Shown here: positions 14,281-48,279 of the stretch, in pieces
Layout: each line of letters begins with the position of its first letter
Position numbering within the stretch: the first letter of the stretch is position 1
Assembly: GCA_903928345.1 (NCBI GenBank)
Contig: CAIYQO010000266.1
Coordinates: 2,029 to 66,028 of the forward strand
Origin: an uncultured bacterium
GTDB taxonomy: Bacteria > Armatimonadota > Hebobacteria > CAIYQO01
Reading direction: 5' to 3'
Length of the DNA: 64,000 nucleotides
The notes under the pieces: model-generated
The model's database searches: none
Told to the model about the DNA's origin: nothing
Seen by the model: the letters and a program-made list of their open reading frames with translations, nothing else
Translations under genes and position numbers: made by a program

Positions 14281-17200
14281 TTACTCGAAGAGGAACTCAC
14301 CCCAGTTGTTCGGCTCCATCTTCAGTTCATACACCTCGTCAGCGACGAGGCCGGTGGCCTGGTTGTTCCAGTAGGTGCGCAATACCGTGTCGGTGCCGGG
14401 GGCGTCGCCGTGGGTGGCCCCGATATCACCGGTGAGCTTCAGGCCGGAGCTGGGGGTCAGGCCGATGGCGCCGAGGGGCACGGCGGCTTCCACGGTGTAG
14501 CTCTTCCCGCGCGGATCGACCTTCACGCTGATCTTCGCGGCGTCGAGTACGATGACGCTCTGCATCTCATACCCGCCACGCACCACGCCCGAGTAGAACT
14601 TGCGCGGGTGCGCGTCCGCCGCCACGCGGCGATACACCACCGCGGTCGGTTTCCCCTGGAAGTTGCCGATGGACAGGCGCAGGTCGCCGAGGACCGCCTC
14701 GCCACGCTTGCGCGGCGCTTTCGGGTCGGTGCCGAGTTGGAAGTCCACCGTGTCGCCGGAGCAATACATCACCGCCGGTTCGGTCGCCCCGTTGACCCAC
14801 GGCGTATCGTCGTTGACCTTCCAGCCGAGGTAGAGGTTGGCGTCGTCGTAGGCGAGGGCGGCTTCGATGCGCGCGGCGGCGCTCTTCTCGAAGGCCAGCG
14901 GCTCCTTGGTGTTGAAGTCCTTGCGCATGTCGCCGGTGAAGGCCACGGTGGCCTTGCGCACGGTGGCGATGCGCGTGCCCACGCTCTGCTGCAACAGCTT
15001 CTCGCGGAAGCCGGCGGCGAGCTTCAGGTCGGTATCCTTCACGGTGAGCTTGCCGTTGCCGAGGCGTTGCACGGTCTCCAACCCGACGACCTTCATGTTG
15101 ATAAAGGCCGTTTTTCCCGCCTGCACGTAGAGCTGGCCGTCCTGCGTGACGCTGATGGAGCCGCCGAAGTCCTCCGCGCCCATGCCCGGGGGCACGCTGT
15201 CCATCACCGCGCCGGGCACGGCGGGGTTGGGCAAGTGGATCTTCATCGGGTCGCTCTCGAACAGCTTCGTCAGGTAGAACCCCTCGCCGGTGAGCAGGTG
15301 CCATTCGCCTTTGTCGGTGGGGATGGCAAAGATGTCGCCGATGGGGTCGGGCAGCTTGCCGGTGCCCACGATGTCATACGCGGCGCGGATCAGGCCGGCC
15401 GCCGGCGGGGGCGCCAGATGGCCGCCGTGCACGCCGACGTAGGTGTTCGGGTACGTCCATTTCAACTGCCCGGTGTTCACGTCGAAGCACTGGAAGTCGC
15501 TGTGGGCGGCGGCGTAGTGGCCGTTGTAGACCATCAGCGTGCCGTCTTCGTTGCCGCAACCGCGCTGGGCGCCCATGCCGCCGCGCGCCTGCACGTCGGC
15601 AGGGGCGGGCAGTTGTTTCTCCTGCGCCAGGTCGTACTCCGGCGCGCCGCAGGCCGTCCAGCCGGTGGGCGCGATGCGGTAGAAGCCGCCGTAGAAGGTG
15701 AGCGACTGCGTCATCGGCATGTACCAGCCGTTCACCCAGCCGCCCAGGTTCATCGGGAAGTCGTGCATTTCGTTCGGCTGGACCTGCTCGTCGCCGTTCT
15801 CGTCGGACCACACGCGGATGCCGGCGAGCTGGCCTTCACGTACCGACTCGCCCAGGTAGCTCTTCTCGTCCTTGCCGATGGCCAGCAGCTTGGTGCGCAG
15901 CTTCCACTGTCCGGCGGCGATGCGTTCATAAATCGACACGGGGTGCGAGCCGTGCCCGCCGTTGCCCACGGCGACGTAGAGCCGGTTGTCCTTCCCCAGG
16001 CCGAAGCGCGCGTTGCTCACGCCGCCGCGGTGGAAGACCGCCAGGCACGTCGCTTTGCCGGTGGTGGGATCCAGGTGCCACTCGCACCCCTGGCCGACCA
16101 TCGTCAGCGTGTCGAGGGGGTCGATGGCGCCACCGCCCGCGCCGTAATCGGTGGGGCCGAAGAATTCCTTCACGAAGGCGCCCGTTTTGGCGTCCCACAC
16201 GGAGATGCGCCGCGGCGTGTCGTCGTTTTCCGCCACCCAGAGCTTGCCCTGGACATCGACGCGCAGGCCGCTGATGAAGCGCATGCCGCCCTGTTCCCAC
16301 GGCCCGAGCAGCGCGCGCCCGCCGGTCTTACCGATGGTGCGCAGTGGCGTGCCGTCGGCGCCGAAGACCTTCACCTGGTTGTCGGGGTCGCCCACGCCGA
16401 CATAGAGCGCGCCGGCGGCGTCCACCGCCAGTGCGTTGGCGGCGGTGAGGCCGTCGACGACGGTGGCGGTTTTGTTATCGGCCAGATTTACGCGCAGCAC
16501 CTTGCCCCCCGCGGCGAGCACGTACAGCGCGCCGTCGGGGCCGATTTCCAGGTCGCCGGCGCCGTCCACAGGAATGGTGGTGAGCAGTTTGCCGGTGGCA
16601 ATATCGACCACGCCGACCACGTTGTCCCCCGCGCAACTGAGGAGCAGCTTGCCATTGACGGCGGTCATGCCGGTGAGCACCGGGGTGGCGCCGGCGGGGG
16701 TGACGTCCTTCAGCAGCGCGGTGATGTCCAGCGTGGCGCTCTCGGTGCCCGGCCAGGAGGAGTACGCGTCCTTCACGGCATCGAGCCGGTAGACGACGTT
16801 GTCGCCCTGCTGGCGGTCGTAGACGTAGAGGATGCCGCCGTCCACGGCGAGCAGCCGCGCGTTGCCGAAGCCGCCGCGCTTATGGCGCCACTTCACGTTG
16901 CCGTCCAGGTCGGTGCACACCACCGCCTGCCCGGCCTCCGCGCCGCTCCAACCCAGGAAGATCGACGTGCCGTCGCTGTCCACCGCCATCGGGTTGCCCT
17001 GGTCGCCGCCCCAGTTGCCGCCGGGGCTGTCGAAGGGCGCGCGGCCCCCGTTGTGCGCCCAGCCGACCAGCCGCAGGCCGATGTCGCCGTGGCGGATCGC
17101 TGACCAGGTATACGCGCCGGCGGGCACCACCTCGCCCGGCTGCATGTGGCTCATATTCGTCAGCCCGTCCCACGGCACGCTGTGCTTGCCCTTGGTGTAA

Positions 17201-18147
17201 AAGGCGGCGTTGAGCAGTTGTCGCACCACCTGGCCGTCGGCGTTCTTGATGTTCAGCGACACGTAGCCGTCTTCCGGCATGGTGAAGGGGATATCGGTGA
17301 AGCCGGCCATCTTCTTCTCTTCGAAGAGGCCGGTCCAATCGACCGCGGGGGTGCCTTTGTCCAGACGCACGGGGAACTCGCGGTTGTCGGCCAGGCGGAG
17401 CGGCTGCGGCTCGACGCCGTCTTTGGCGGCCAGGAAGCCGTAGCCCCAGCAGTTGACGGCGCGGAAGGTGAAGACGCGGTCGGGGGTGACGCCGGGGCGG
17501 AAGATGTCCTTCATGGTGATGCGGAAATGCGCGTCGGTGCAGAAGTTCGGCTCGGCGGAGATGACGATGCGCCCGCCCGTCTTCGGCGTAATGCCACCCT
17601 TGATGAGGGTCGTCCACGGCAGCGCGATCTCCTGCGTGTAGCCCTTGCCGTCGGCGTTCTTCAGGAAGGCCTGCTGGGCGCCCAACTTCTTCGCGTCGGG
17701 GGTGTTGATGCCGTCGCCTTTGTAGCATTGCAGCGCGACTACGTCCTTGGCATCGCGGTCACGCCAGGCGGTGAGCCAGCAGATGGATGGGTTGGCGTCG
17801 TCCGGGTTGACGATAAGGCGCAACTGCAGGCAGTCGCCGTTCCAGCCCATGTCGCCGGCGATGCTGCCGGGGTTGTTCATCGGCGTTTCGTCGACCCAGC
17901 GCGCCAGAATGTACAGGTTGTCCTTGTCATACTGGGCGTGCAGCCACACCGCCAGCTTGTCGCGCAAGTGCTCCACGTCGCTGCAGGTGAAGACCCCGCC
18001 GGAGAGATCCCAGTCGTCGGTCTTGCCGTCGATGACCATCTTCCCCGGCGTGGGGAGGACGCGGATGTTCAGGTTTTCCGTCTCCGTTGCCAGGACGGCG
18101 GTACCGAGCGCCAGCAACACGAGCGCAAGCAGGAAGAAGCGAGTCAT
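14281..18147 (-). CDS. giant secreted multidomain protein, type A (CBM9-like N-domain, FlgD-Ig-like, NHL/beta-propeller-like repeats, CBM9-like C-domain)
   Basis: 1288 aa. Signal peptide. IDGKTDDWDLSG motif (CBM9-like). WDGL..G..VP.GAYTW (FlgD-Ig-like). Repeated ALAVDAAGALYVG..DPDNQVKVF (NHL-like). Paralog of the ORFs at 28533 and 54257. Confidence 0.8.
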   Translation of the reverse strand: MTRFFLLALVLLALGTAVLATETENLNIRVLPTPGKMVIDGKTDDWDLSGGVFTCSDVEHLRDKLAVWLHAQYDKDNLYILARWVDETPMNNPGSIAGDMGWNGDCLQLRLIVNPDDANPSICWLTAWRDRDAKDVVALQCYKGDGINTPDAKKLGAQQAFLKNADGKGYTQEIALPWTTLIKGGITPKTGGRIVISAEPNFCTDAHFRITMKDIFRPGVTPDRVFTFRAVNCWGYGFLAAKDGVEPQPLRLADNREFPVRLDKGTPAVDWTGLFEEKKMAGFTDIPFTMPEDGYVSLNIKNADGQVVRQLLNAAFYTKGKHSVPWDGLTNMSHMQPGEVVPAGAYTWSAIRHGDIGLRLVGWAHNGGRAPFDSPGGNWGGDQGNPMAVDSDGTSIFLGWSGAEAGQAVVCTDLDGNVKWRHKRGGFGNARLLAVDGGILYVYDRQQGDNVVYRLDAVKDAYSSWPGTESATLDITALLKDVTPAGATPVLTGMTAVNGKLLLSCAGDNVVGVVDIATGKLLTTIPVDGAGDLEIGPDGALYVLAAGGKVLRVNLADNKTATVVDGLTAANALAVDAAGALYVGVGDPDNQVKVFGADGTPLRTIGKTGGRALLGPWEQGGMRFISGLRVDVQGKLWVAENDDTPRRISVWDAKTGAFVKEFFGPTDYGAGGGAIDPLDTLTMVGQGCEWHLDPTTGKATCLAVFHRGGVSNARFGLGKDNRLYVAVGNGGHGSHPVSIYERIAAGQWKLRTKLLAIGKDEKSYLGESVREGQLAGIRVWSDENGDEQVQPNEMHDFPMNLGGWVNGWYMPMTQSLTFYGGFYRIAPTGWTACGAPEYDLAQEKQLPAPADVQARGGMGAQRGCGNEDGTLMVYNGHYAAAHSDFQCFDVNTGQLKWTYPNTYVGVHGGHLAPPPAAGLIRAAYDIVGTGKLPDPIGDIFAIPTDKGEWHLLTGEGFYLTKLFESDPMKIHLPNPAVPGAVMDSVPPGMGAEDFGGSISVTQDGQLYVQAGKTAFINMKVVGLETVQRLGNGKLTVKDTDLKLAAGFREKLLQQSVGTRIATVRKATVAFTGDMRKDFNTKEPLAFEKSAAARIEAALAYDDANLYLGWKVNDDTPWVNGATEPAVMYCSGDTVDFQLGTDPKAPRKRGEAVLGDLRLSIGNFQGKPTAVVYRRVAADAHPRKFYSGVVRGGYEMQSVIVLDAAKISVKVDPRGKSYTVEAAVPLGAIGLTPSSGLKLTGDIGATHGDAPGTDTVLRTYWNNQATGLVADEVYELKMEPNNWGEFLFE

Positions 18148-18388
18148 ACAGGTCTCCTCGGGTGGATTCGTTGCGCGACACGTCCGGGGAAATACGGCGC
18201 AAGCCCTTGTTCCCGGCGTGGCGGGTGATATACATACCTTGCCCCATTATACCTGATAGATGACCGGTAATACCAGCCTCCTTTTAGGGGTTGCGGCAGG
18301 CAAATAATAGGCGACCTGACAGGACAATCCGTGCGGAACGCGAAAGTGCTGTATCTATAAGCAGAAACCGATCCGGAAAGGTGTCTCC

Positions 18389-20515
18389 ATGCCGCAATCC
18401 TCTCGCGTCCTCCTCCTGCTCATCGTCGTGCTGCTCGCCGCCGGCGCGTGCGCGGCGGAGACGCCGTTGAAGTATTCCGCCGGGTGGCTCGGGAACAGCT
18501 TTGCCAACCCGCAGTGGATTCAAAAGGACGGCCTGGGGCTGGCGGTGGGGGCGGACGGCGCCTGCTACCTCACCGCGTCGTGGGACGAAGTCGGCAAGGG
18601 GCTGGGTATCTATCGCGACGGCAACGCGGTCGGGATGTGCCAGGGCATCAGCGTCGGCGACGGCGCGGTGGCGGTGGACGACAAATACATCTATGGCGGC
18701 ACCTACCGCGACATCGCGGGCAAAGGGACGCATGGCATCGGGCGTTGGGGGCTGGACGGCTCGCCGGCACCGACCGCGGGGGGCTCGAACTTCCTGCCCA
18801 TCGGGGCGGCGTGGATGGCCGCCGCGACGGCGTACCAGGGCGAATTATTCGTCGGGGATACCGACGCGATTCGCGTCTACGACCGGGAGACGCTGGTGGA
18901 GAAGCGCCACTTCCCCTGCCCGCACCCGTTTCGGCTGGCGGTGGACCACACCGGGCTGCTGTGGGTGATCGGGTGCGTCGCGACCACCGAGGCGGGCATG
19001 CCGGCCACGCTGACGCAATACACCCGCGACGGGGCGCTCACCGGCGTGCGGATCGCCGATGTGGACGGCGCCACCGCGCTGGCGATCACCCCGACGGGGG
19101 GGCTGCTGGTGGCCGGGCCGCGGCAGCAGGTGCTGAAATACGACCTGTCAGGCCAGGCGCCTAAACTGGTCGGCACACTGGGCGTGGCGGGCGGCGTGTG
19201 GGCCGGCACGCCCGGCGCGATGGCACCGAACAAGCTGCTGGGGCTGATCGGCGTGGGGTGCGACGCGCTCGGAAATATCTACACGTTGGGGCGCGCCCCG
19301 GCGGTGGGCGGCGGCGTGGACTTGCGCAAGTTCAAGGCCGACGGCACCCTCATCTGGCAGCGCTTCAACACCGGCTTCACCGACTGCGCGGACGTGGACC
19401 CGGCGTCGGACGGCCTGGACGTCTACACCCGCGACGAGCACTTCGTTTTCGACGCCAAGAAGCCGCTCGGGGCGCAGTGGGTATGGAAGGGCTACACCCT
19501 CGACCCGCGCTATGACGACGGTCGCGCCGAGGGGCGCGCTTGCGGCGACAGCATGTTCAACTGGGGCTCGCCCCTCGTGCGGCGGCTGCAGGGGCGGCTG
19601 TACCTGTTCACGCGCCCGGGCAGCTACTTCGGCATCTTCCGCCAGGGGAAGGGCGAGGTGTTCCTCCCCAGCGGGCTCATCGGGCTCACGCCGACATGGC
19701 TTATCGTCGCCCCCGCCGACAACCGGCGCGACACCGTGTGGCCCCCGCAGCAACCCACCCCGCGCTCGCGGTGGAACTGGCGCGACGCCAACGGCGACGG
19801 CAAAATTCAGCCCGAGGAGATCACCAACTCCCCCAAGCTGCTGACCGAAGTGGAAGCGATCAACGGCTCCTGGGTGGATGACCAGGGGGATATCTGGCTG
19901 GCCGGCTCCTCGAGCGGCATCCGCTGCCTGTGGCACATGCCGCTGCTGGGCTTCGACGCGCAGCAGAACCCGATCTACACGTGGGAGAAGACGCAGCGCC
20001 TGCCCTTGCCCAAGGAGTTCACCGATTGCGGCCGCATCCAGTATGACGCGCGCACGGATACCATGTATCTCTCCGGCATGACCCCGGAGCACCCGAACGA
20101 CACGCACTGGGGGGACATCGGGCCGGTGATCGCGCGGTATGACCACTGGTCGAAACCGGAACGCACCCTGCGCTGGACAATTCAGGAGCCGGCCGGCCCG
20201 CCGAAGTCGGCGAACGGCGACGCCTTCTTCCCCGCGCTCGCCATCGCCGGCAATCGCGTCTTCGTGATGCAGCGCTACGGGGCGCGCATCTGGGTCTACG
20301 ACGCGGACAGCGGCGCCTACGCCGGCATGGTCACCACCACGCCGGAGGTCGGCCCCTCCGGCTGGTGCGATATGCCCTTCGGCCTGTCCGCCTTCGCGCG
20401 CAAAGACGGCAGCGTGTTGCTGCTGGCGGAAGACGACTACCGCCCGAAGGTGCGCACCTACCTGGTGCCGCCGCAGCCGCTGGACCCCAAGGCGGTGCGC
20501 CCGGCGGCGTGGTAA
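18389..20515 (+). CDS. large secreted beta-propeller-like protein, type B paralog
   Basis: 708 aa. Signal peptide. Shares GFDAQQNPIYTWEK and a C-terminal AEDDY module with 25884 and 45163. Divergent from type A gene 14281. Confidence 0.7.
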   Translation: MPQSSRVLLLLIVVLLAAGACAAETPLKYSAGWLGNSFANPQWIQKDGLGLAVGADGACYLTASWDEVGKGLGIYRDGNAVGMCQGISVGDGAVAVDDKYIYGGTYRDIAGKGTHGIGRWGLDGSPAPTAGGSNFLPIGAAWMAAATAYQGELFVGDTDAIRVYDRETLVEKRHFPCPHPFRLAVDHTGLLWVIGCVATTEAGMPATLTQYTRDGALTGVRIADVDGATALAITPTGGLLVAGPRQQVLKYDLSGQAPKLVGTLGVAGGVWAGTPGAMAPNKLLGLIGVGCDALGNIYTLGRAPAVGGGVDLRKFKADGTLIWQRFNTGFTDCADVDPASDGLDVYTRDEHFVFDAKKPLGAQWVWKGYTLDPRYDDGRAEGRACGDSMFNWGSPLVRRLQGRLYLFTRPGSYFGIFRQGKGEVFLPSGLIGLTPTWLIVAPADNRRDTVWPPQQPTPRSRWNWRDANGDGKIQPEEITNSPKLLTEVEAINGSWVDDQGDIWLAGSSSGIRCLWHMPLLGFDAQQNPIYTWEKTQRLPLPKEFTDCGRIQYDARTDTMYLSGMTPEHPNDTHWGDIGPVIARYDHWSKPERTLRWTIQEPAGPPKSANGDAFFPALAIAGNRVFVMQRYGARIWVYDADSGAYAGMVTTTPEVGPSGWCDMPFGLSAFARKDGSVLLLAEDDYRPKVRTYLVPPQPLDPKAVRPAAW

Positions 20516-20523
20516 GGGCGTAA

Positions 20524-21264: not shown

Positions 21265-21365
21265 GGATCATCCCCCCGAGGCAAGTGTACCGGGGGGCAC
21301 GGCAACCTGTAAAGGGGTAAGTCGCCGGGCGGTTCAGCTAAGCGTTTCGCGCTCTCGCGCGACCC

Positions 21366-21520
21366 TCATCCCCCAGCCCCTTCTCCCAGGGGGAGAAGGG
21401 GGGCGTCCGATCGGCGTACACGCACGGGGACCAACACGCCCTCTCCCCGCTGGGAGAGGGTTGGGGTGAGGGCCGCGCCGGGAGGCGCGGAACGTATAAG
21501 TGAACCGTATTGGGGCAGAT
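21366..21520. repeat. G-rich hairpin repeats (CCCTTCTCCC-AGGG-GGAGAAGGG; CCCTCTCCCCGCTGGGAGAGGG...GGGTGAGGGCCGCGCCGGGAGGCGCGG)
   Basis: A block of about 85 nt at 21437-21520 is about 90% identical to 28343-28425. A related hairpin lies at 59368-59389. Confidence 0.45.
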
Positions 21521-21658
21521 CGCCGCGCGGGGTGTTCACTGTTCGCTTATCTGTTTCCGAGCTGACAATCAATCATCAGGTCGAAGAGCAGGCAACCGCA
21601 TACAAAGATCAAACAAGTATAATGGGAGCCGACGCATCCCTCGCTAATCCAGTCGGAG

Positions 21659-23731
21659 GTGAACGCCATGTCCCGCGAGCATATCTGTCAGACCCTGAAA
21701 CCTTTCCCGATGGCCCCGTACGTCTTCATCACCGAAGAGACGACGGCGGACGATCTGGCGCGCTACTTCGCCGACATCAAGGCGTGCGGCTTCGACGCCG
21801 TGCGCACCGGCAACGCGCCGACCTACCTGGGTCCCGACGAGATCGACTACACGGTGAGCGACCTGTTCTTCCGGCTGGCGGAGGAGCACGGGCTGCTGCT
21901 CTTCCCGCACTTCCAGATGAGTTACTGCGGCTGGATGGGCGCGGCGCCGCACGCTATCGATCCCGTGCGCAACCTGCTGGACGAGCGCTACCATGCCCTG
22001 CTCGACGCCTACTTCACCGCCGTGGTGCGCCGCTACCGCGAACACCCCGCGCTGCTGGCGTGGATCGGCATCGGCGAGCCGGGCAGCTTTCCCGAGGCGC
22101 TGCTCGACGACCCGCAGGTGCGCGCCCTATACCGTGCCTGGCTGCAGGAACAGTACGGCTCGCTGCCGGCGCTGGAGCACGCGTGGGGATTCGGCAGCCG
22201 GTTGCCGTATGGCCACGAAGAGGTGACGGCGTGGGACGCCGGGGCGCACTGGGCCGGGCAGGTCTTCGAAAAGTACCGCCATCAGCGCGACTGGCTGCGC
22301 TTCCAGACGGAGTTCCTGCTGGAGCAGACGACGACCTGTGAACGGGTGACCATGCGCGAGGACGACCGACATCCTCTCCTCACCGGCATCCACAACGTGC
22401 TGGCGAACGCGGCGGCGAAGACGTGGGATTTCGGCCTGCAGGCGAGCCGCGCGGACGGGCTGATGTCCTCCATCCACGCGGGGTGGCACTCGGGACTCGG
22501 CGACTACGAATTCTTCCTGCCGCTGTATGTCCAGGCGCGCATGACGCGCGATTTTTGCAAGGACGGCTGGGCAATCGCCTACGAAACCACCGGCGGCCCG
22601 AACTTCCGCTCCGCCGACCGCGGCTACAACCTGCACCCGCGCGAGCGGTATCAGATGATGCTCGGGTACCTGGCCGCCGGGCTGCAAGGCGGCGGCTTCT
22701 GGACGTGGAACGCCCGCCTGACCGGCTACGAGGCGGGGGAATACGCGCTGACCACGCTGCAAGGCACGCCCGCCGCGCGGGCACGGCTGCTGGGCGACTT
22801 TGCCCGCCGCATGGCGCAGTGGCGGGAGGAGCTGTACGACGCGAAGCCCGAACGCCTCGCCGCGGTGCTCTACAGTTGGGAGAGCGAGGCCTTCTGCGCC
22901 TACGACCGGCTCACCCACGCGGAGTCCATGCAGCGCGACGCGGGCTCGCGCCACCGCCTGGGTGCCGCGCGCAGCCTGACGGACGCCAACATCCCGTGGG
23001 AGTTCGTCACCGACGCGGAGCTGTGCGACGGCACCGTGCACGCCTACCCGGTGCTCGTGATCCCCGGGATGCCGGTGGTGTCCGATGCCGCGCTGGCGGC
23101 GCTGGACGACTACGTCCGCGGCGGCGGCACGCTGATCGTCGATATGCCCTTCGCGGTCTACGATGAAAACGGCCGCATCCGCACCGCAGGCGCCGGGGGC
23201 GCGGTCGACCGCGTGCTGGGCGCCTACCTCGCCGACATCTATGACACCTTCAACGAGCCGATGGCGCTGGGCGCGCTGCCGGTGGAGGGCACCTTCGGCG
23301 AGTGGGTGCCGACGGCGGCCACCGTGCAGGCGACCTTCGCCGACGGACGCCCGGCGGTATTGGAGCACCGGCTGGGCGCGGGGCGTGCCGTGTGCTTCGC
23401 CTTCGAGGTGTGCGGCCGGAGCGCGTCGGCCGGCCAACCCGACTATGAACACCTGCTGGCGGAGACGGTGCTGGCGGGGCGCGCACACCCCTGGACGTGC
23501 CCCGACGCCGTGGCCTTCCGGCGGCAAGTGGGCGCGGTTGATTACTACTACCTGGTCAACCTCGGCGCGGCCCGCGACACGACCCTGCAGGTGCACGACG
23601 CGGCGTACCGCACCGTGCACGATGTCATGGCCGACGCCGCCCTCCCATACACGACGAACGACGAGGGGTGCGCGGTCCCCGTGCATCTGCCCGCGGGCAT
23701 GGGCGCCTGGCTGCGTTGCGAGCGCGGGTGA
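21659..23731 (+). CDS. glycoside hydrolase, GH42-like beta-galactosidase family (TIM barrel plus trimerisation-like middle domain)
   Basis: 690 aa. The middle domain YPVLVIPGMPVVSDAALAALDDYVRGGGTLI resembles the GH42 M-domain. The N-terminal TIM-barrel region is consistent. Confidence 0.55.
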   Translation: MNAMSREHICQTLKPFPMAPYVFITEETTADDLARYFADIKACGFDAVRTGNAPTYLGPDEIDYTVSDLFFRLAEEHGLLLFPHFQMSYCGWMGAAPHAIDPVRNLLDERYHALLDAYFTAVVRRYREHPALLAWIGIGEPGSFPEALLDDPQVRALYRAWLQEQYGSLPALEHAWGFGSRLPYGHEEVTAWDAGAHWAGQVFEKYRHQRDWLRFQTEFLLEQTTTCERVTMREDDRHPLLTGIHNVLANAAAKTWDFGLQASRADGLMSSIHAGWHSGLGDYEFFLPLYVQARMTRDFCKDGWAIAYETTGGPNFRSADRGYNLHPRERYQMMLGYLAAGLQGGGFWTWNARLTGYEAGEYALTTLQGTPAARARLLGDFARRMAQWREELYDAKPERLAAVLYSWESEAFCAYDRLTHAESMQRDAGSRHRLGAARSLTDANIPWEFVTDAELCDGTVHAYPVLVIPGMPVVSDAALAALDDYVRGGGTLIVDMPFAVYDENGRIRTAGAGGAVDRVLGAYLADIYDTFNEPMALGALPVEGTFGEWVPTAATVQATFADGRPAVLEHRLGAGRAVCFAFEVCGRSASAGQPDYEHLLAETVLAGRAHPWTCPDAVAFRRQVGAVDYYYLVNLGAARDTTLQVHDAAYRTVHDVMADAALPYTTNDEGCAVPVHLPAGMGAWLRCERG

Positions 23732-25883: not shown

Positions 25884-28250
25884 ATGCACACCCGCCTGTT
25901 CCTTATCGTCGCGCTGCTGTTCGCCGGGCTGGCCGTGTCCGCGGCGGAGCCGTCGCGCTACCGCTTTACCTACACGCTGCCGACGGCGGCGGCGCTGACC
26001 AGCGCGGGGGTATACGATGCCCACGACCACCTGGTGAAGACGCTGTGGACGCTGCAGCCGCTGGCGGCGGGGGTGCAAACGGCCGCCTGGGACGGGCTGG
26101 ACGCCGACGGGCAGCCCGTGCCGGCGGGCGCCTACACCTGCAAGGTGGTGGTGAACCGCGGGGTCTACACGCAGCGCGGCATCATCGGCAACACGGGCAC
26201 ACCGAGTAATACCTTCGGCCACGTGCCCATCAACTTCGAGGCGGTGGCGGTGGATCGCGACGGCTTCATCTACACCGTGCATGACTGGGATGAGCCGCAC
26301 AACGACGTGATCCGCTGGAACCCCGCCACCGGCGCCGTGGCCTCGCACTCCGGGCACCCCATCGGCGACCTGATGAAGGCGGTGGCGGTGGACGACGCTT
26401 ACGCCTACGTCTCCCTTTACAGCAACCTGGACGACCGCGCCAAAGCGAAGTTTTACCTGGCTCGCCTGCGCATCGACAAAACGCCAGGCGCCGCGGGATG
26501 GGCGGTGACGCCCTTCACCAAAGCGGGGCGTTTCCTCATGGTTTACGACGACGGCGCGGCGTACCCCGACGGGGTCAGCGACGCCGACCGCGGGCTGATG
26601 CGCGTGCCGCTGCTGTCGCTGGCGGTGCACGGACAGACCCTCTACGCCGTCGACGCGCTGGCCGGGCTGGTGCGGATGTATGACAAAACGACCGGCGAGG
26701 CCACGGGCCACATCGCCGTACCGCTGCCGCAAGCGGTGGCGGTAGCCCCCGACGGGCGGGTGTGGGTGGGCCACGCGCACCACCGGGTGAGCGTCTTTAC
26801 TGCCGACGGCAAAGCGGTCGGCACGCCGATCACCGACCTGACGGAGGTGAACGCGCTGGCCTTCGGCCCCGACGGCGCGCTCTACGTGGCCGACCAGGGG
26901 GCCGGGCAGGTGAAGGTCTACGCGGTAGCCGGCGCCGCCGTCACGCCGCGCCGCACGCTGGGCACCCCGGCACTGCCCGGCGACCGCGCGGCGGACCACT
27001 TCTTCCACCTGCACGGGCTGGCGGTAGACGGCCAGGGCAACGTGATCACCGCGCAGAACGAATACTTCTTCAACGGCGGGCGGCTGGCCAAATTCGCCGC
27101 GGACGGCACGGTGCAGTGGGAGCAGTACGGGCTGGAGTTCCAGTCCAACGGCACCTACGGGGCCAACGATCCGGACACCTTCATCTCCGTGATGGACCAC
27201 GCCTACCGGCTGAACCGCGCCACGGGGAGCGCCGCCTACCTGGGGCAGGGCTACACCGGCACCGGCTATCACGGCGGCCCCAGCGGCACGCCGCGGGTGT
27301 GCCGCCTGGGTGCGCACGACTTCTACTACTTCCCCAGCGGAGACGGCGTGCAGGTGTACCGCATCGACCCCAACCCCGCCGGCGGCAGTCCGCTGCTCAC
27401 CTTCGTGTCCATCCTGGGCCGCGCCCAGCCGCTGCCCACCGGCGTGATGGCCGAGGCGGTGTGGAAGGGCGAGAACTACTACCTGTGGTCGTGGCACGAC
27501 GCGCGCGGCGACCACACCGTGCACCCGGAGGACGTCTCCCTGTGGGCGAAGCCGGAGGACAAGCGTCCCCTGTGGCAGTACGGCCCGCTGACGGTGGACG
27601 CCGACAAAAATATCTGGATGCCGTCCTACGACCGTGGCGGCAACACGCCGGAGCAGAACTCCGTGTGGATGGTGCCGCTGGCCGGGCTGGACGCGCAAGG
27701 CAACCCGATGTACGAGTGGAAGAACGTTGTGTGCGTGGTGCCGCGCGGGTCGCTGCTGTGGGACACCGGCGTGAAGATGGTGCAGCACGACGCCGACGGC
27801 TACACCTACCTTTACGGCGCGACGAAGCGCAAGGACGCGCCGCAGAACGGCGGGGTGTGGATGGGCGGCAACACGCTGGCCTGTTTTGACGGCCCCGAGC
27901 GCCGCTGGCAGATTCTGCTGCCCGACATCTGCGTGGGGATGGACGTGATCCCCGGCAACCAGGGTGGCTGCATTCTCGGCGGCGACCCCTTCCACGGCGG
28001 GCTGCACCATTACACGCGCGACGGGTTGCTCATCGGCAAGGTCGGCCCCGACCCGAAGCTGATGGGTGCGCCGCCGAATAACCCCAGCGGACTGCTCGAC
28101 TTCTTCGGCGCGGTGGTGGTGAAACGCAACCCGCGCGACGGTATCCTGGACGTCTTCGCCGAGGACGACTACAACCTGCGCATCGCCTGGTACCGCATCG
28201 ACGACCGCGCCATCGACACCATCAGCGGCCCGCTGACCGTTGCGCGGTAA
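25884..28250 (+). CDS. large secreted protein, type B paralog (FlgD-Ig-like plus NHL/beta-propeller-like plus C-terminal AEDDY module)
   Basis: Start at MHTRLFLIVALLF (RBS GGGAGG at 25871-76). Motifs WDGLDADGQPVPAGAYTCK and LAFGPDGALYVADQGAGQVKVY. Confidence 0.7.
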   Translation: MHTRLFLIVALLFAGLAVSAAEPSRYRFTYTLPTAAALTSAGVYDAHDHLVKTLWTLQPLAAGVQTAAWDGLDADGQPVPAGAYTCKVVVNRGVYTQRGIIGNTGTPSNTFGHVPINFEAVAVDRDGFIYTVHDWDEPHNDVIRWNPATGAVASHSGHPIGDLMKAVAVDDAYAYVSLYSNLDDRAKAKFYLARLRIDKTPGAAGWAVTPFTKAGRFLMVYDDGAAYPDGVSDADRGLMRVPLLSLAVHGQTLYAVDALAGLVRMYDKTTGEATGHIAVPLPQAVAVAPDGRVWVGHAHHRVSVFTADGKAVGTPITDLTEVNALAFGPDGALYVADQGAGQVKVYAVAGAAVTPRRTLGTPALPGDRAADHFFHLHGLAVDGQGNVITAQNEYFFNGGRLAKFAADGTVQWEQYGLEFQSNGTYGANDPDTFISVMDHAYRLNRATGSAAYLGQGYTGTGYHGGPSGTPRVCRLGAHDFYYFPSGDGVQVYRIDPNPAGGSPLLTFVSILGRAQPLPTGVMAEAVWKGENYYLWSWHDARGDHTVHPEDVSLWAKPEDKRPLWQYGPLTVDADKNIWMPSYDRGGNTPEQNSVWMVPLAGLDAQGNPMYEWKNVVCVVPRGSLLWDTGVKMVQHDADGYTYLYGATKRKDAPQNGGVWMGGNTLACFDGPERRWQILLPDICVGMDVIPGNQGGCILGGDPFHGGLHHYTRDGLLIGKVGPDPKLMGAPPNNPSGLLDFFGAVVVKRNPRDGILDVFAEDDYNLRIAWYRIDDRAIDTISGPLTVAR

Positions 28251-28294
28251 GCGGCGCGAAGAGGAAGAAACGGTCGCCGGTGATGGGAACCGGA

Positions 28295-28440
28295 CGAAAA
28301 ACTGGTATTAGCCCAATACCGTTCAAATATCCGCATCCGTCAGAGCCCCTCTCCACGCTGGGAGAGGGGTTGGGGTGAGGGCCGCGCGGGAGCGCGGAAC
28401 GACGGTTGAACGGTATTGGGTATTCGCCCGAAGTATAAGC
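28295..28440. repeat. MITE-like element carrying the G-rich core, with TIRs GGTATTAGCCCAATACCGTTCAA / TTGAACGGTATTGGGTATTCGCC
   Basis: TIRs at 28296-28321 and 28405-28430. The core is about 90% identical to 21437-21520. Confidence 0.5.
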
Positions 28441-28493
28441 TCACCGCCCGCAAGCCGACCGGTATATCGCTGTGTTTTTTCGGCCAAATCGCC

Positions 28494-28499
28494 TATAAT
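28494..28499 (+). promoter_or_regulatory. consensus -10 TATAAT about 34 nt upstream of ATG 28533
   Basis: GCCTATAATAGG. The -35 is weak. Confidence 0.3.
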
Positions 28500-28532
28500 A
28501 GGCACATCATTACCCCACGAAAAGGTGTCACC

Positions 28533-33298: not shown

Positions 33299-34453
33299 AT
33301 GCGCAAGGGCTTTACCCTGATCGAACTCCTTGTCGTGATAGCGATAATTGCTATCCTGGCCGCTATCCTTTTCCCCGTCTTCGCCAAGGCGCGCGAGAAG
33401 GCGCGGCAGACGGCGTGCATCAACAATCAGAAGCAGATCACCACCGCGACGCTGATGTATGCGCAGGACAACAACGAAATGCTCCCCGACGCCGGCAGCT
33501 TCTGGGGCGCGCTGAACATCGACCGCGGCGTGTTGAAGTGCCAGACGAAGAGCCGCCTCGCCAACGGCTACGTCTACTACAGCGCGATCTCCGGGCAGGC
33601 GCTGGGGAAGATCAACGCGCCGGAGAGCACCGCCCTGACGGGTGATGGGTTGCACAACGCCACGACGACCCCGCTCACCTATGACAACGTGGCCTACACC
33701 GACGCCGACTTCGATACCGCGCGCCACGGCGGCAAATATATCGTCTCCTTCGTCGACGGCCACCAGGAGCTGTACAGCACCGGCGTCTTCGGCAACGCGG
33801 CCGTCTTCGCGCTGGACGAAAACACCGGCACGTCGGCCGGCGACTCCAGCGGCAAAGGCGGCACCGGCACGCTCTTCAACACCGCCAGTTGGACCGCCGG
33901 GCATCTGGGCTACGCGGTGAAGTGCGACGGCAACAACAGCTACGTCGAAATCACCAACAACGCCAACCTGGAGAACGTGCAGGAAAGCAACTACACGCTG
34001 GCGGCGTGGTTCAAGCCCAACAGCAACCCCGCCGGCACCGGCTCCGCCAACAACGCCTGCTACGGCATCATCTGCAAGCAGGGGTACCATACCGGGCTCA
34101 CCTACAACAACGGCGGCACCTTTTCGATGTCGCAGTGGTATAACCCGGGGCCGGCGTGCGCGGGCGCCACGACAAGCGGCACCTACGCGCCGGGGAGCTG
34201 GTATCATGTGGCGGCCACCATCGACCGCACCAACGGCATCGTGAAGCTCTATGTCAACGGGACGCAGGACGGCACGAGCAGCTATACCAAGAACGCCGCC
34301 ATTTACGAGTACAACCAGATGCAGTGGCGCATCGGCATCGCGCAGCCCGGCGCCGGCACGTACCGCTGGTGCGCTGACGGCATCATCGACGACGCGCGCA
34401 TCTACAACAAGGCGCTCTCCGACGCGGAAGTCGCCTACCTCGCCGCGCAGTAA
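33299..34453 (+). CDS. prepilin-type N-terminal cleavage/methylation domain protein with LamG-like (concanavalin-type) domain
   Basis: [28 protein letters not shown] (type IV pilin-like N-terminus). C-terminal ...[24 protein letters not shown]...[16 protein letters not shown] (LamG-like). Confidence 0.8.
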
Positions 34454-39160: not shown

Positions 39161-39180
39161 CTCGTCCGAAGGACGCTTGC

Positions 39181-39832: not shown

Positions 39833-39888
39833 TTCGACCCACCGACCCTTCCGCGAACACAAACGGCCGACCACCTTCTGCCTTGCCC

Positions 39889-39917: not shown

Positions 39918-39922
39918 AAGGC

Positions 39923-41201: not shown

Positions 41202-41382
41202 TTTGATTGCGGATTGTAGATTGCGGAATGCGGATTAAGGCTGGGAGTCGTTCCGCTCTTCTGTAATCGACCCCCGGCCCCGCCCCCGTCACAGGATTGT
41301 TACGGGGGTGAGGGGCCGACAACAGGTAAACGGAACGATTCACAATACGATCCACCATTTACGATCCCCAGGAGGCCCCCCC

Positions 41383-43566
41383 ATGCAGCCGTTGACCTTC
41401 GACCACACCAGTTTCCTCGCGAACGGGGAGCGCATCTTTCTCATCTCCGGCGAGGTGCACTACTTCCGCGTGCCGCGGGCGGGGTGGGGCGATCGGCTGC
41501 GGAAGATGCAGGACGCCGGGGGCAACTGCGTGGCGACCTATGTCCCCTGGCTGCTGCACGAGCCGGAGGAGGGGCGCTTCGACTTCGACGGCGCGCAATT
41601 GGAACTGGAGGCCTTTCTCGACCTCTGCAACGAGGTGGGCCTCTGGGCGCTGGTGCGGCCCGGGCCGTATCAGTACTCCGAGCTGGCGTACGACGGCCTG
41701 CCCGGCTGGTTGTGCGAGGGGTATCCCACCCTGCGCGCGCAAAACCTGGCGGGCAAGGATTTCCGCGTCTCCTCCATCTCCTACCTGCACCCCGACTTCC
41801 TCGCCAAGGCGCGCCGCTGGTTCCACGAGGTGGCGCCGCGCATCGCCCGGCACCTCACCTCGCACGGGGGCGCCGTGGCGGCGGTGCAAGTGGATAACGA
41901 ATTGATGGGCATCCACGAATGGTTCGGCAGCCTGGATTACCACCCCGCGGCGATGGGCGTGGGACGGGAGATGGGGCGCTGGCCGGCCTTCCTGCAGACG
42001 CGCTACGGTTCGCTGGACGCGGTGAACGCCGCCTACGGCCTGCGTGCCAAGACGTGGGCAGCGGTGCGACCTCTCGACGCGGTGACCGCCGGCACGCCGG
42101 AAGAACGGCGGCGCGTGCAGGACTACGCGGAATGCTACCGCGGCAGCGTGGCCCACTACGCGCGCATCCTGGCCGATTGGCTGCGCGAGGGCGGCGTGGA
42201 CGTGCCCATCGTGCACAACTCGCCCAACCCCACGTCGAACGCCGACTTCCGCGAGCTGGTCGAACGCATGGGGCCGGACTTCCTGCTCGGTTCGGACCAC
42301 TACTACGCACTGGACATGGACTGGGACGGCAACAACCCCACACCGAAGTATGCCGCCAAATGCTTCTACTCCCTCGAGGAGTTGCGCCACTTCGGCGTGC
42401 CGCCCACCGTGTTCGAAATGCCCGGCGGCAGCCTGTCCGACTTCCCGCCCGTCACCGCTCACGACGCCGAGTGCGCCTACCTGCTCAACGTGGCCTACGG
42501 GTTGAAGGGGTACAACTACTACATCTTCGCCGGGGGTTACAACGTGCCCGGCACCGGCACCACCAGCGAAGTCTACGACTACGGCGCGGCGGTCTCCCCC
42601 GACGGCGAGTTGCGCCCCCTCTACGGCGCGCAGCAACGGCTGGGGCAATTCCTGGCCGACCACCGCTGGCTCGCGGGCGCGGGGTGCGCCGCCGATTGCC
42701 GCATCGGGCTGCTGTGGGAGTACAGCCGCGCGGGTAAGCACGGGGCCGACCACAAGGGCGGCATCGACTTCTCCGCCGCCGACGCGTGGGGACTCTTCTG
42801 GAAGGGCCTGCTGATGACCGCCTTCAGCGCCGGACTCACCCCGGAACTGGCGGATCTCGCCAGCGACGACGTGCTGGCGCGCCTGGATCTCCCCCTCGTG
42901 GTGCCCACGGCGCACACGATGTCCCGCGCCGTGCAAGAAGGCCTGGTCGACTTCGTGCGGGCGGGGGGGCAGTTGCTCCTTGCGCCGGTGGTGCCCGCCC
43001 TCGACGAAGCGTACCGCCCGTGCACCGTGCTGGCGGACTTCCTCGGCGCGCCGGTGCAGGAGGCCTACCGCTGCATGGCGCCGCTGCTCACCGCCTTCGA
43101 CGTGCGCAACGTCTTTGTGAACGGCGGCCTCTTCGCCACCACCGCCCGCCCCGAGGACGCCGTGCCGGTGGCCGTGGAGGAGCGCGGGAACCGCGAGATC
43201 GGCTGGCGCCGCGCCTACCCCGGCGGCGGCTGCGCCACCATACTCGGCCTGCACTGGAAACACGCCAAGCACGAACACGCGACCATGCTCGCCAACGCCC
43301 TCACCGACCTCGGCCTGCAGCGCCGCGTGCAGTGCAGCAACCCGTTGATCTGGACGGCCTTGCGCAGCGACGGGCAACGCACCATGCTCTTTCTGCTCAA
43401 CCTCTTCACCGCCCCGCTCACCACCCGCGTCTCCTTCCGCGACACCACCGGCACGTGGATCGACACCGGCGAGCACACCCTCCCCGGCATCTCCGTCACC
43501 GCGTGGACGGACGGGCGGGTGGTGTATAACACGGCGGATGGGGCGAAAATAGGAGGACGGGGATGA
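41383..43566 (+). CDS. glycoside hydrolase family 35 beta-galactosidase-like
   Basis: ISGEVHYFRVP...WGDRLRKMQDAG.N.VATYVPW.LHEPEEG.FDF.G...LE.F...C...GLWALVRPGPY...E...GLPGWL. Nucleophile region VQVDNELMG. Confidence 0.8.
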   Translation: MQPLTFDHTSFLANGERIFLISGEVHYFRVPRAGWGDRLRKMQDAGGNCVATYVPWLLHEPEEGRFDFDGAQLELEAFLDLCNEVGLWALVRPGPYQYSELAYDGLPGWLCEGYPTLRAQNLAGKDFRVSSISYLHPDFLAKARRWFHEVAPRIARHLTSHGGAVAAVQVDNELMGIHEWFGSLDYHPAAMGVGREMGRWPAFLQTRYGSLDAVNAAYGLRAKTWAAVRPLDAVTAGTPEERRRVQDYAECYRGSVAHYARILADWLREGGVDVPIVHNSPNPTSNADFRELVERMGPDFLLGSDHYYALDMDWDGNNPTPKYAAKCFYSLEELRHFGVPPTVFEMPGGSLSDFPPVTAHDAECAYLLNVAYGLKGYNYYIFAGGYNVPGTGTTSEVYDYGAAVSPDGELRPLYGAQQRLGQFLADHRWLAGAGCAADCRIGLLWEYSRAGKHGADHKGGIDFSAADAWGLFWKGLLMTAFSAGLTPELADLASDDVLARLDLPLVVPTAHTMSRAVQEGLVDFVRAGGQLLLAPVVPALDEAYRPCTVLADFLGAPVQEAYRCMAPLLTAFDVRNVFVNGGLFATTARPEDAVPVAVEERGNREIGWRRAYPGGGCATILGLHWKHAKHEHATMLANALTDLGLQRRVQCSNPLIWTALRSDGQRTMLFLLNLFTAPLTTRVSFRDTTGTWIDTGEHTLPGISVTAWTDGRVVYNTADGAKIGGRG

Positions 43567-43694: not shown

Positions 43695-43711
43695 CCTCGC
43701 AGGATATCCCC

Positions 43712-44392
43712 ATGTCGCATCGCGCCTGGACAATTCTGCTGACGACGAGCATCGCGCTGGCGGTTTTCGCGGTGAGTTGGGCGGCGGTGGTGCTGGTGCG
43801 GCACTTCCACCGCGGCGTCGTCGTGTCACGCACCAGTTTCCCGGTGGGCATCGTCATCCACCACACCGCCACGCCGCCGCGGGTGGGGGGCCGGTTGGTG
43901 GACTCCGCTTTCATCGACCGCATGCACGCGGTGCGTAGCTTCTGGGTGGCCGACAGCAACGGGGCGGTCTACCACATCGGCTACCATTTCCTCATCATGC
44001 AGGACGGCACGGTGCAGCGCGGGCGGCCCGAGCACCTGCACGGCGGGCACGCGCGCGGACACGCGGATATGCTGGGCATCGTGCTGGTGGGCAACTTCCA
44101 CGCCGCCAGCAACCGCGGGCAGGAAGGCCCCCTCACCCCGCCGCCCGCGCAGCTCCTCGCCACCGAGCGCCTTACGCGGCAGCTCATGACCAAGTACGGC
44201 CTCACCCCCGCGGATGTCTATCTGCACCGCGACCTCTGCCCCACCGCCTGCCCCGGCGACCACTTCCCGGAAAAAGCGTTCCGCGCCGCCCTCACCCACC
44301 CCGACCCCGGCCCGCCGGTCGTCGTAAAACCCTTCCCGCCCCCGGCATGGCTGCCGAAGACGGTGGTAAAAACGGTACCGGTCACCCATTGA
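43712..44392 (+). CDS. N-acetylmuramoyl-L-alanine amidase (Amidase_2/PGRP fold), membrane-anchored
   Basis: GIVIHHTA, HGGHARGHADMLGIVLVGNF, HRDLCPTACPG zinc-ligand pattern. N-terminal TM. Confidence 0.7.
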   Translation: MSHRAWTILLTTSIALAVFAVSWAAVVLVRHFHRGVVVSRTSFPVGIVIHHTATPPRVGGRLVDSAFIDRMHAVRSFWVADSNGAVYHIGYHFLIMQDGTVQRGRPEHLHGGHARGHADMLGIVLVGNFHAASNRGQEGPLTPPPAQLLATERLTRQLMTKYGLTPADVYLHRDLCPTACPGDHFPEKAFRAALTHPDPGPPVVVKPFPPPAWLPKTVVKTVPVTH

Positions 44393-44451
44393 ACGTGTTC
44401 AATTCCCGGCTAAACGCCGACTTGCCGCCCGGCGTGCTATACTGAAACGAG

Positions 44452-45135
44452 ATGATGAGACACCGGCTGATCGCGGTAGGGGTGTTGCTGGCGCTGGCGC
44501 GGCTGTGCGCCGGGGCGACGGTGCTGCCGACCGTGCATGCGGCGGTAAAGCTGGTGGTGGACGGCGACGCGGGCGAGTGGGCCGCGCTGCCCGGCGTGCT
44601 CACACGGCAGTTGGGCGACAAGCCGGACGGCCCCACCGTGGCGATGACCTGGGACGGCGCCAACCTCGACCTCGCCTTCACCGTGCCGCAGCCCAAGGAT
44701 ACCGTGACGCGCGTGCCCATCAGCCTGCCCTTCAGCGACGGCCTGTGGCGGCGCGGCGACCGGGTGGAGTGGTACGTCACCGTCGGCGACGACACCTTCC
44801 ACTACGTCTTCATGCCCACCGGCGACTGCTTCCGCATCATCGTGAAGAAGGGCGGTTTCGAGGAAGGGCACGACGCGGACTTCGCCTACAAAGCGCGCAT
44901 CCTGCCCGACCGCTGGTGCGGCGAGGTGCAGATCGGCCTCGAAGACAGCCCCTTCCCGCTCCCCAAGCGCCACCCGGACTGGGCGATGCGCTTCGTGTAT
45001 ACCAACATCGCCGCAAAGACCACCCTCGCCTGGCCGGTGCCGAAGGCCGACGCCGATCCGCCACCGAGCGAAACGGTCCACTTCTCCCCCGACCCGCCGG
45101 CGAAACCCGTGCCCCCGGCGCCCGCGGGGAAATGA
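44452..45135 (+). CDS. secreted stand-alone CBM9-like domain protein
   Basis: Signal peptide. VVDGDAGEWAALPG motif. 227 aa. Immediately upstream of type-B gene 45163. Confidence 0.6.
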   Translation: MMRHRLIAVGVLLALARLCAGATVLPTVHAAVKLVVDGDAGEWAALPGVLTRQLGDKPDGPTVAMTWDGANLDLAFTVPQPKDTVTRVPISLPFSDGLWRRGDRVEWYVTVGDDTFHYVFMPTGDCFRIIVKKGGFEEGHDADFAYKARILPDRWCGEVQIGLEDSPFPLPKRHPDWAMRFVYTNIAAKTTLAWPVPKADADPPPSETVHFSPDPPAKPVPPAPAGK

Positions 45136-45162
45136 CGTTCTGCCGACAATACGAGGTGCCCC

Positions 45163-48100: not shown

Positions 48101-48279
48101 GCTACCAACCGACGGGCGAGCAATGGGCCGGGCAGGTCTTCAAACACCCGAAGACGGGCCGCGTCTACATCGTCGCCCAGCCCAACGCCCAACCGCTCCT
48201 GCTGCTCTACGAAGTGACGGGCACCGACAAGGTGCAGTACTTCACCGGCACCTGCCAACTGCCGGCGGGCGGGAAGTAA
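45163..48279 (+). CDS. giant secreted protein, type B paralog with N-terminal CBM9-like domain
   Basis: 1038 aa. ITVDGNLTDAEWGGD (CBM9-like). ALWDGKDDAGHAVPPGTYKLKG (FlgD-Ig-like). NHL-like repeats (LAFDAVGNLVVVDTGNLRIQVF). FQGFDKTGNPIYTWEK. Confidence 0.75.
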   Translation: MHITLRLFVLAGLCALALFPCRVWAEDDTAVMPIYPVAGPITVDGNLTDAEWGGDRLAWPIDIPEFGTVAVYWLRYDQHTLYGAFKVTDSSPAKNTRLMHDRWEGDQLEICLCTDPANHPQHSSFGDYDHQVFLGRDGEGAVNAYVNINDKLSGTLPVGSHVAITPWADGKGYNLEFSLPWASLNRPADFAPKTGLQIGWQVQVDLSTPDGERLAYTAKWWPHGIHFQHPNQWAWARFLAPGEERPAPPRPAAAIATSGSEVQFPTPTDGLVSVNITDDKGALVRRLVIGQHLNKGTNAALWDGKDDAGHAVPPGTYKLKGSVANLGVKYLTTLGNTSPEPYGGLRRSAGGEYRHGCWSDVITNPDGTFYVLNWGGEGPPALQQVDPKQHFRVIWGGTTTTSGNEFQEYGARDGNTLYFTHERRVGAAQRISTLSRMNAVTHKGERFTSGEWTVPLGEPRTGQWAPDADVCGLGAHGGKVYVPCRYENRVDVYDGTSGDKVGTITNPAFTGPMDIAFAADGTMFVVDKTSVYTYDTAQKCTGTITTGLTQGAAVTAEPTGGVYVTDAGTNQVKAFTLAGKPLKTIGPKGGAASTLAKYGIDGVGGKIHDDWFYHPAGLAFDAVGNLVVVDTGNLRIQVFNPAGKCVKSLLAAMYANLCIDPKHPETVFEFDAQGVMLAHHMNWQTGASRIDGEYTLNARASFVKFHHGTPYFFGGDCSVWTIDKGKARMRTALYRYAYPSYEQFAPVLENGKVVRKNYQQISGNKIPISLPWEFRDLNGDGLPQLSEYRCYTKEQARPWWGYNGGDFYVDDDWNMYLGNWNWQDGHSYVVKIPFQGFDKTGNPIYTWEKSEMKFSSANDPAWNSDNFKAPQMSGIHLGADGSVYLALNDRPGFEPLDNRLRKYNPDGTRAWSICHGTRGFWHKPGEELTWITDMGGPIDGLLVGIEETGSFEFFNPDGFYIGTALQPSDMTPDAYGTDVRYQPTGEQWAGQVFKHPKTGRVYIVAQPNAQPLLLLYEVTGTDKVQYFTGTCQLPAGGK

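Follow-up and report, generated by a model that had tools for sequence, protein, structure and literature searches.

Comparable Systems

Carbohydrate-binding modules of family 9 (CBM9), in their classical form, are appended to glycoside hydrolases (GHs) such as xylanases. Considered here is a stretch of DNA of 64,000 nucleotides (nt) from an uncultured bacterium of the Armatimonadota (contig CAIYQO010000266.1, positions 2,029 to 66,028), referred to throughout as the window, in which CBM9-like modules instead flank an immunoglobulin-like (Ig) domain and a beta-propeller core, without any recognizable catalytic domain. Six paralogs, not all of which carry such modules, are found there along with one additional small CBM9-like gene. 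The favored interpretation, to which a probability of roughly 70% can be attached, is that of a lineage-specific, local build-up of paralogs from a widespread, uncharacterized family of secreted CBM9/Ig/tandem-propeller proteins. The region as it stands, that is, is an ordinary paralog cluster, of a family that is common and unstudied. I use the term ‘A-type’ for those members with CBM9-like modules at both ends and ‘B-type’ (B1 or B2) for those without. The genes at issue, as based on a list of open reading frames (ORFs), on hidden Markov models (HMMs), or on other evidence as indicated, with lengths in amino acids (aa), are the following:

14281-18147, minus strand: A14281, A-type gene, 1288 aa (ORF list, domain HMMs)
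18389-20515, plus strand: B18389, B1-type gene, 708 aa (ORF list, domain HMMs)
25884-28250, plus strand: B25884, B2-type gene, 788 aa (ORF list, Pfam, AlphaFold2)
28533-32351, plus strand: A28533, A-type gene, 1272 aa, architecture as in A14281 (Pfam, HMMs)
44452-45135, plus strand: 44452, gene for a small, predicted secreted, CBM9-like protein of a rare family, 227 aa
45163-48279, plus strand: 45163, hybrid gene, 1038 aa (Pfam, HMMs)
54257-58000, minus strand: A54257, third and divergent A-class gene, 1247 aa, lying outside the range of the preliminary description

Genes, strands, and gaps are as given in that description, as ORF coordinates confirm: A14281 and B18389 are divergent, with 241 nt between them, B25884 and A28533 are in tandem, with 282 nt between them, and 44452 and 45163 are in tandem and 27 nt apart. 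All three had been presented as pairings of an A-type or CBM9-like gene with a type-B gene. As adjacencies these stand; the assignment of 45163 to type B does not, as it is a hybrid, possessing CBM9_1 and FlgD_ig domains of its own. Nor are these proteins ‘giant’. At 708 to 1288 aa they are large instead.

The likeness to CBM9 consists of matches to CBM9_1 (PF06452, of a DOMON/EB_dh-like beta-sandwich clan) by the N-modules of A28533 (38.0 bits), A54257 (28.3 bits), and 45163 (28.2 bits), all above the Pfam gathering cutoff of 23.4 bits; sugar binding by these modules is a prediction. A14281 has no direct CBM9_1 match, though it is 51% identical to A28533.

A second comparison is with NHL and SMP-30/gluconolactonase-like (SGL) propellers that are accompanied by FlgD-type Ig domains. 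Here B25884, 45163, and A54257 exceed the cutoffs both for FlgD_ig (PF13860, cutoff 27 bits; 46.9, 42.7, and 33.2 bits, respectively) and for NHL (PF01436, cutoff 20 bits; 24.4, 37.1, and 25.8 bits), with B25884 also above cutoff for SGL (30.9 bits). FlgD_ig scores fall below cutoff in A14281 (21.8 bits) and A28533 (15.5 bits), B18389 has no FlgD_ig match, and none of these three has a Pfam match to NHL. What differs is the core, which in the window is larger (a tandem propeller of ~670 aa) and has neither a sequence relative in the PDB nor a structural match with a template-modeling (TM) score above 0.44, and in which none of the residues is assignable as catalytic. A28533 and B18389, when searched against PDB sequences, returned nothing at E<=1. 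The AlphaFold2 model of B25884, from an alignment of 30 sequences and with a predicted local distance difference test (pLDDT) value of 92.5, is all-beta, consisting of an Ig domain and then tandem beta-propellers, and Foldseek matches of that model to the PDB are to generic tandem WD/propellers (Utp21-like, EML-like), with no enzyme among the matches. Membership among the ScyD/ScyE/ScyF NHL proteins was considered and rejected: NCBIfam matches to FlgD and to ScyD/E/F are all sub-threshold, e.g., 31 bits for ScyE_fam and 54 bits for ScyF versus curated cutoffs of 80 and 350 bits.

BT4663 of Bacteroides, a hybrid two-component, periplasmic, double-propeller glycan sensor, shares with these proteins a tandem propeller (Foldseek E ~1e-12). 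It differs in that TM-scores are 0.22 to 0.25 and that the window proteins have no transmembrane, kinase, or receiver domains. The corresponding hybrid sensor family, Reg_prop (PF07494), was rejected as a home for these proteins, with scores of 15.8 to 15.9 bits versus a cutoff of 20.4 bits and with no HisKA, HATPase, or receiver domain.

Lastly there are clusters of carbohydrate-active enzymes and polysaccharide utilization loci. As with those, secreted CBM-bearing paralogs are clustered with GH genes, i.e., with GH35 and GH42-like genes in the window and, elsewhere, with GH2, GH95, GH130, GH3, and regulators. Unlike those, there is no SusC/SusD-like pair among the scanned genes, neighbors are unconserved, and the cluster is loose, with housekeeping genes in between. 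Indeed, Pfam scans of 30 context genes of the window found neither TonB-dependent receptor nor SusD, and a Bacteroidota-type polysaccharide utilization locus was rejected on that basis. A literature search found nothing relevant on a CBM9/FlgD-Ig/NHL-propeller family.

Architecture and Paralogy

By sequence comparison, six window proteins, i.e., all of those listed other than 44452, belong to one superfamily, with an HMM scan finding exactly these six members in the window. The domain HMMs used (A_Ncbm, A_Ig, A_core, A_Cdom, B1, and B2) were made from homolog alignments. A-type proteins consist, in order, of a signal peptide, a CBM9-like N-module (residues ~25-255), a FlgD-Ig domain (285-362), a propeller core of ~670 aa, and a CBM9-like C-module (1045-1272). 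A14281, for example, scores 388 bits with A_Ncbm, 137 with A_Ig, 1018 with A_core, and 374 with A_Cdom. The C-module is viewed as itself CBM9-like because it cross-matches the N-module HMM.

The remaining members are built otherwise. B25884 consists of a signal peptide, FlgD-Ig, and a B2 core, which is a tandem beta-propeller, and B18389 of a signal peptide and a B1 propeller core alone, with no CBM9 and no Ig. The 45163 product has its own signal peptide, a CBM9 N-module, FlgD-Ig, and a B2-like tandem-propeller core, with no C-module; that core is nearer to B2 (155 bits) than to A_core (61 bits). B18389, B25884, and 45163 are mutually nearest relatives, and each is a singleton upon clustering of neighboring paralogs into subfamilies.

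In all-against-all BLAST, A14281 and A28533 are 51% identical over their full lengths, A54257 is 28% identical to either, and B18389 and B25884 are 26% identical. Between A-type and B-type proteins identity is ~25%, over the central core. Because the A–A and B–B divergences are unequal (51% versus 26% identity) and the orientations of the two A–B pairs differ, no A–B unit was duplicated, and a single segmental duplication behind both pairs is ruled out on the same grounds.

Under the favored interpretation, six paralogs and one small CBM9-like gene would have accumulated in a single neighborhood that also holds carbohydrate-related genes. Superfamily members would be Sec-secreted and modular, combining Ig with a tandem beta-propeller core of NHL-type blades; A-type members carry a CBM9-like beta-sandwich at both ends, B-type members none, and the 45163 product an N-terminal one only. 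The two A/B adjacencies would be by-products of paralog accumulation rather than instances of an obligate A:B pair, and within the cluster only 44452 followed by 45163 would behave as a conserved, probably co-transcribed module. The function, presumably, is one of extracellular glycan binding or processing.

Gene Neighborhoods in Other Genomes

Members of the A-type family abound in metagenome-assembled genomes (MAGs) of Planctomycetota, Verrucomicrobiota, Lentisphaerota, and Armatimonadota, with at least 869 homolog clusters at 53 to 63% identity and with 276 matches in species-representative contigs, i.e., one genome per species. There are 28 homologs in the B1 family and 71 in the B2 family, so that A-type outnumbers either by more than tenfold. 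The B1 family is rare and patchy, and includes cyanobacterial proteins (P0138-P0145; Nostoc, Nodularia, Richelia) that are 33 to 37% identical to B18389, which is to say far removed from the window’s source, which resembles the Planctomycetes-Verrucomicrobia-Chlamydiae group (PVC) or Armatimonadota.

In support of the favored interpretation, A- and B-type genes are not neighbors in the other genomes sampled. The A sample consists of 79 genome loci centered on A-type genes, with flanks of up to 10 kilobases (kb) and a flank total of 1.08 megabases; 64 of the 79 extend for 5 kb or more to one side, and six-frame ORFs were scanned by HMM. No B1- or B2-family neighbor was found at any of the 79, the top B1/B2 score among neighbors being 112 bits versus ~1000 for true members, nor at three extra A-type loci (L133, L144, and L145), for a total of 0 of 82. 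Paralogs neighboring these A-type genes are closest by BLAST to A-class proteins, with one exception, a weak match to 45163 (41 bits).

The same result is obtained starting with B-type genes. Fifty-two metagenome loci were fetched for B2, with the gene present in 50 and flanked by 2 kb or more in 32 of those 50. None of the 50 has an A-type neighbor, and one carries instead a second B2 paralog. Neither is there an A-type neighbor at any of three B1 loci (58%, 51%, and 45% identity to B18389). Among the closest orthologs, a B2 gene that is 81% identical to B25884 has GH2, GH71-like, GH95, and aldo-keto reductase genes around it and no A-type gene, and another at 79% (L081) likewise has no A-type neighbor. 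Ahead of the A28533 orthologs at 63% and 62% identity there is not a B-type gene but a paralog of 1700 aa with NHL, F5/8-type-C, and PA14 domains, and beside an A14281 ortholog at 69% (L036) there is a second gene of A-type. A54257 has an ortholog group of its own (L025, 49% identity). Synteny of 31 context genes of the window is not conserved in the fetched loci, tblastn giving only generic ABC-F, histidine-kinase, and N-methyl/LamG matches.

Beside two B2 homologs there are genes of a family, of secreted proteins of ~1000 aa, that is otherwise not recognized (L081, 12461-15652, minus strand; L105, 4287-7298, plus strand). These two proteins share 24 to 25% identity, match nothing in Pfam, and show a weak likeness to CBM9 in a C-terminal segment. 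Neither is related to A-type, and the family is absent from the window.

Clustering of superfamily members is in fact general, and it is the partners that are variable. Another propeller-bearing paralog is present within 10 kb at 30 of the 79 A-type loci and is directly adjacent (gap of no more than 1.5 kb) at 20 of those 30, with 19 of the 20 adjacent paralogs lacking an N-terminal CBM9 module. Approximately 60 to 75% of A-type genes are without a paralog partner. Neighboring paralogs split into several subfamilies, the most frequent of which (11 loci) can be described as D-type, that is, NHL plus PA14, with or without discoidin (F5/8 type C), plus an A-like C-module, in proteins of 1250 to 1800 aa. 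With the closest A28533 orthologs a D-type gene (for a protein of 1250 to 1700 aa) is immediately upstream on the same strand, at a gap of -4 to 35 base pairs (bp):

L133, 4899-10004: D-type gene upstream of an A28533 ortholog
L145, 4863-9965: D-type gene upstream of an A28533 ortholog
L144, 6226-9984: D-type gene upstream of an A28533 ortholog

No D-type gene is found in the window. Carbohydrate-related flanks are frequent elsewhere, including GH130, GH3 with CBM6, GH2, GH95, and regulators of GntR/Peripla_BP_3 type (GntR/LacI-type).

Adjacency, Control Regions, and Possible Coupling

A number of observations weigh against a simple build-up of paralogs. The comparison loci are in many cases short contigs (of the 50 B2 loci, only 15 extend for 2 kb or more in both directions), and the closest genomes compared reach ~80% protein identity at best, which leaves room for recent, lineage-specific coupling. 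In the window, each of the three B-clade genes stands next to one that encodes a CBM9-like module. Adjacencies within the window nominally exceed those of random ordering (P ~0.01-0.06). As to function, only generic tandem-propeller matches to the B25884 model were found (TM-score <=0.44). Lastly, the highest-identity ortholog of 44452 (P0220, 59%, at locus L136) has an AAA-ATPase/PDDEXK gene after it, in place of a 45163-like gene, and no family member within 10 kb.

A recent coupling in this organism only, i.e., one in which B-clade propellers have been recruited beside CBM9-bearing genes so as to act on one substrate, co-regulated and complementary though not ancestrally so, is accordingly what one might propose, and is an unlikely though not a negligible explanation. 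It would account for all three B-clade genes adjoining a CBM9-like-module gene, with GH35 and GH42-like genes interspersed, and it has a parallel in the 19 of 79 loci elsewhere at which an A-type gene adjoins a paralog lacking the N-terminal CBM9 module. Against this, upon permuting gene order at the local density of family genes, two or more A–B adjacencies arise with P=0.025-0.058, and three or more, with C counted as A-like and X as B-like, with P=0.011-0.039, from a test that was post hoc and a result that is marginal. Random ordering alone, that is, gives a P of a few percent.

Nor do the control regions point to coupling. The two intergenic regions in question are these:

18148-18388: 241-bp intergenic region from which A14281 and B18389 diverge, with a separate TATAAT-like box facing each way
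28251-28532: 282-bp spacer between B25884 and A28533, with a palindromic element and then a TATAAT box ~35 nt before the A28533 start

The paired family genes thus probably have separate promoters, as judged from these boxes; consensus scans found no sigma-70 promoters or terminators in either region. A comparison of upstream regions (18148-18388, 21270-21658, and 28251-28532) found no longer shared, operator-like motif among the family genes, only 9-mers that are -10-like or ribosome-binding-site-like, and there is no independent sign of co-regulation. Of the short strings that are shared, TATAATGGG is common to the regions upstream of A14281 and of the GH42-like gene, and AAAGGTGTC stands directly ahead of the start codon (ATG) in A28533 as well as in B18389; these may be -10 and ribosome-binding-site contexts.

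Also speaking against coupling is the mobile-looking palindromic element found between B25884 and A28533. It resembles repetitive extragenic palindromic (REP) sequences or miniature inverted-repeat transposable elements (MITEs), and ends in perfect arms of 15 nt, CCCAATACCGTTCAA ... TTGAACGGTATTGGG, that are ~79 nt apart, with an interior consisting of a GC hairpin, CCCCTCTCC/GGAGAGGGG, plus a core, GGGTTGGGGTGAGGGCCGCGC. Its copies in the window are as follows:

28312-28420: copy upstream of A28533
59086-59192: copy ~1.1 kb upstream of A54257
~21420-21513: partial copy upstream of the GH42-like gene

The preliminary description went further, proposing that repeated co-localization reflects a two-component functional unit. 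In such a unit A and B would constitute a conserved pair, heteromeric or obligately cooperating, with the carbohydrate-binding modules coming from A and a bare propeller from B. Three adjacencies within one window, the permutation values just given, and the complementarity of the two architectures are what speak for such a unit. It is nonetheless very improbable, given that A:B adjacency is missing from 82 A-type, 50 B2, and 3 B1 loci, including around B2 orthologs that are 79 to 81% identical, given that A-type genes outnumber B1 or B2 more than tenfold while B1 occurs as well in cyanobacteria, and given that A54257 is partnerless and that the window’s two pairs differ in both orientation and divergence. 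A- and B-type genes at the loci sampled elsewhere occur, that is, independently of one another, which is the very outcome that the preliminary description had named as refuting, and that portion of the description does not survive.

The 44452/45163 Pair

Accumulation of paralogs as the favored interpretation leaves one arrangement within the cluster that is more than a by-product. The 44452 protein belongs to a rare family, with five homologs among 1.84 billion representatives. Its description as CBM9-like holds up via indirect links and not through Pfam, in which it has no match even at E<=10 and does not reach the CBM9_1 cutoff. Thus, it matches (E=3.3e-6) the 222-aa P0223, which itself matches CBM9_1 (E=7.9e-9), another homolog has two CBM9_1 domains, and a self-built, generic CBM9-like HMM gives 24 bits (E=3.4e-6), from which 44452 would be a distant CBM9-like protein. 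From the single sequence, AlphaFold2 gives a poor, all-beta model (pLDDT 42). Free-standing homologs of similar length are P0220 (59% identity) and P0221 (47%), and in a 669-aa homolog the module is joined with LamG, the sole fusion found, rather than with a propeller.

The order of 44452 and then 45163 is kept in three of four contexts of close family members, admittedly a small sample. These are the window and two other, independent contigs, namely L137, in which a 44452 ortholog (47-48% identity) is separated by 167 bp from a 45163 ortholog (57%) downstream, and L140/L141, in which the LamG-fused 44452 relative (37%) overlaps a 45163 ortholog (42%) by 4 bp. The distant P0223 has no 45163-like partner at its locus, and tblastn found no orthologs of 44452 or 45163 in the 135 A, B1, and B2 loci. 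There is good evidence, from this small sample, that 44452 followed by 45163 is a small, conserved, two-gene module. Only 27 nt, including GAGG, lie upstream of 45163, which suggests co-transcription with 44452, and the two genes probably are so transcribed, as far as can be judged from their sequence.

A broader proposal, which is possible if somewhat doubtful, is that 44452 and 45163 form a two-protein system in which a rare, free-standing, CBM9-like partner, e.g., a substrate-capture or anchoring subunit, would serve a CBM9-Ig-tandem-propeller protein. The superfamily of PVC bacteria and Armatimonadota then would represent extracellular propellers, active on glycans, of a class so far undescribed, deployed in variable combinations of paralogs (A with D-type, C with X).

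That 44452 is instead an N-terminal CBM9 module detached by a split or frameshift from an A-type or 45163-type protein, as had been suggested for the type-A N-module, can be dismissed as most improbable, since the 27-nt same-strand gap and distant CBM9 likeness that would favor this are set against a 45163 that is already complete with signal peptide, CBM9_1, and Ig, and whose orthologs too retain their own CBM9 module; against a 44452 that carries its own signal peptide and Pro-rich tail and that matches the A N-module profile in hhalign with a probability of 43% and an identity of 16%; against the existence of P0220 and P0221 as free-standing orthologs, with LamG the only fusion partner; and against conservation of the two-gene arrangement at 37 to 57% identity, because of which the separateness is old rather than the result of a recent break.

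Significance

Members of the A-type family, so common in MAGs of the PVC type and of Armatimonadota, are annotated only as hypothetical, as ‘PQQ-like propeller’, or as ‘sugar-binding’. The absence of fixed A:B pairs serves to keep a false operon or complex model out of such annotation. Combinations that are worth testing are, rather, the variable paralog clusters, the recurrent D-type-then-A-type arrangement, and the module of 44452 and 45163. If these proteins should turn out to be glycan-active, then they would constitute a new, propeller-based family within the carbohydrate-degradation repertoire of the phyla concerned.

Other Features of the Window

The window has a GC content of ~66%. All six ORFs of the preliminary description have a third-codon-position GC of ~0.9, as in real genes there, and all six products have a signal-peptide-like, hydrophobic N-terminus. 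A54257 has no family neighbor, being flanked by a class II aldolase gene and a Zn-ribbon ORF. Further carbohydrate-related genes of the neighborhood include a sugar oxidoreductase and an aldolase. Other genes that may be listed are as follows:

21659-23731, plus strand: GH42-like beta-galactosidase-family protein
41308-43566, plus strand: GH35 beta-galactosidase-family protein
33299-34453, plus strand: protein with an N_methyl (prepilin-type methylation motif) N-terminus, a DUF1559 fragment, and a LamG domain

The last of these is of a type that is typical of PVC and Armatimonadota genomes, with relatives found in four A-type loci (L006, L015, L042, and L060). Two patches are lower in GC than the ~0.66 of the window, i.e., 4000-6400 (0.60) and 58000-60000 (0.58). 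The first contains a gene for a 391-aa protein of 10 WG_beta_rep repeats (5199-6374) along with a 413-aa ORF without Pfam match, and the second contains the Zn-ribbon ORF along with one copy of the palindromic element.

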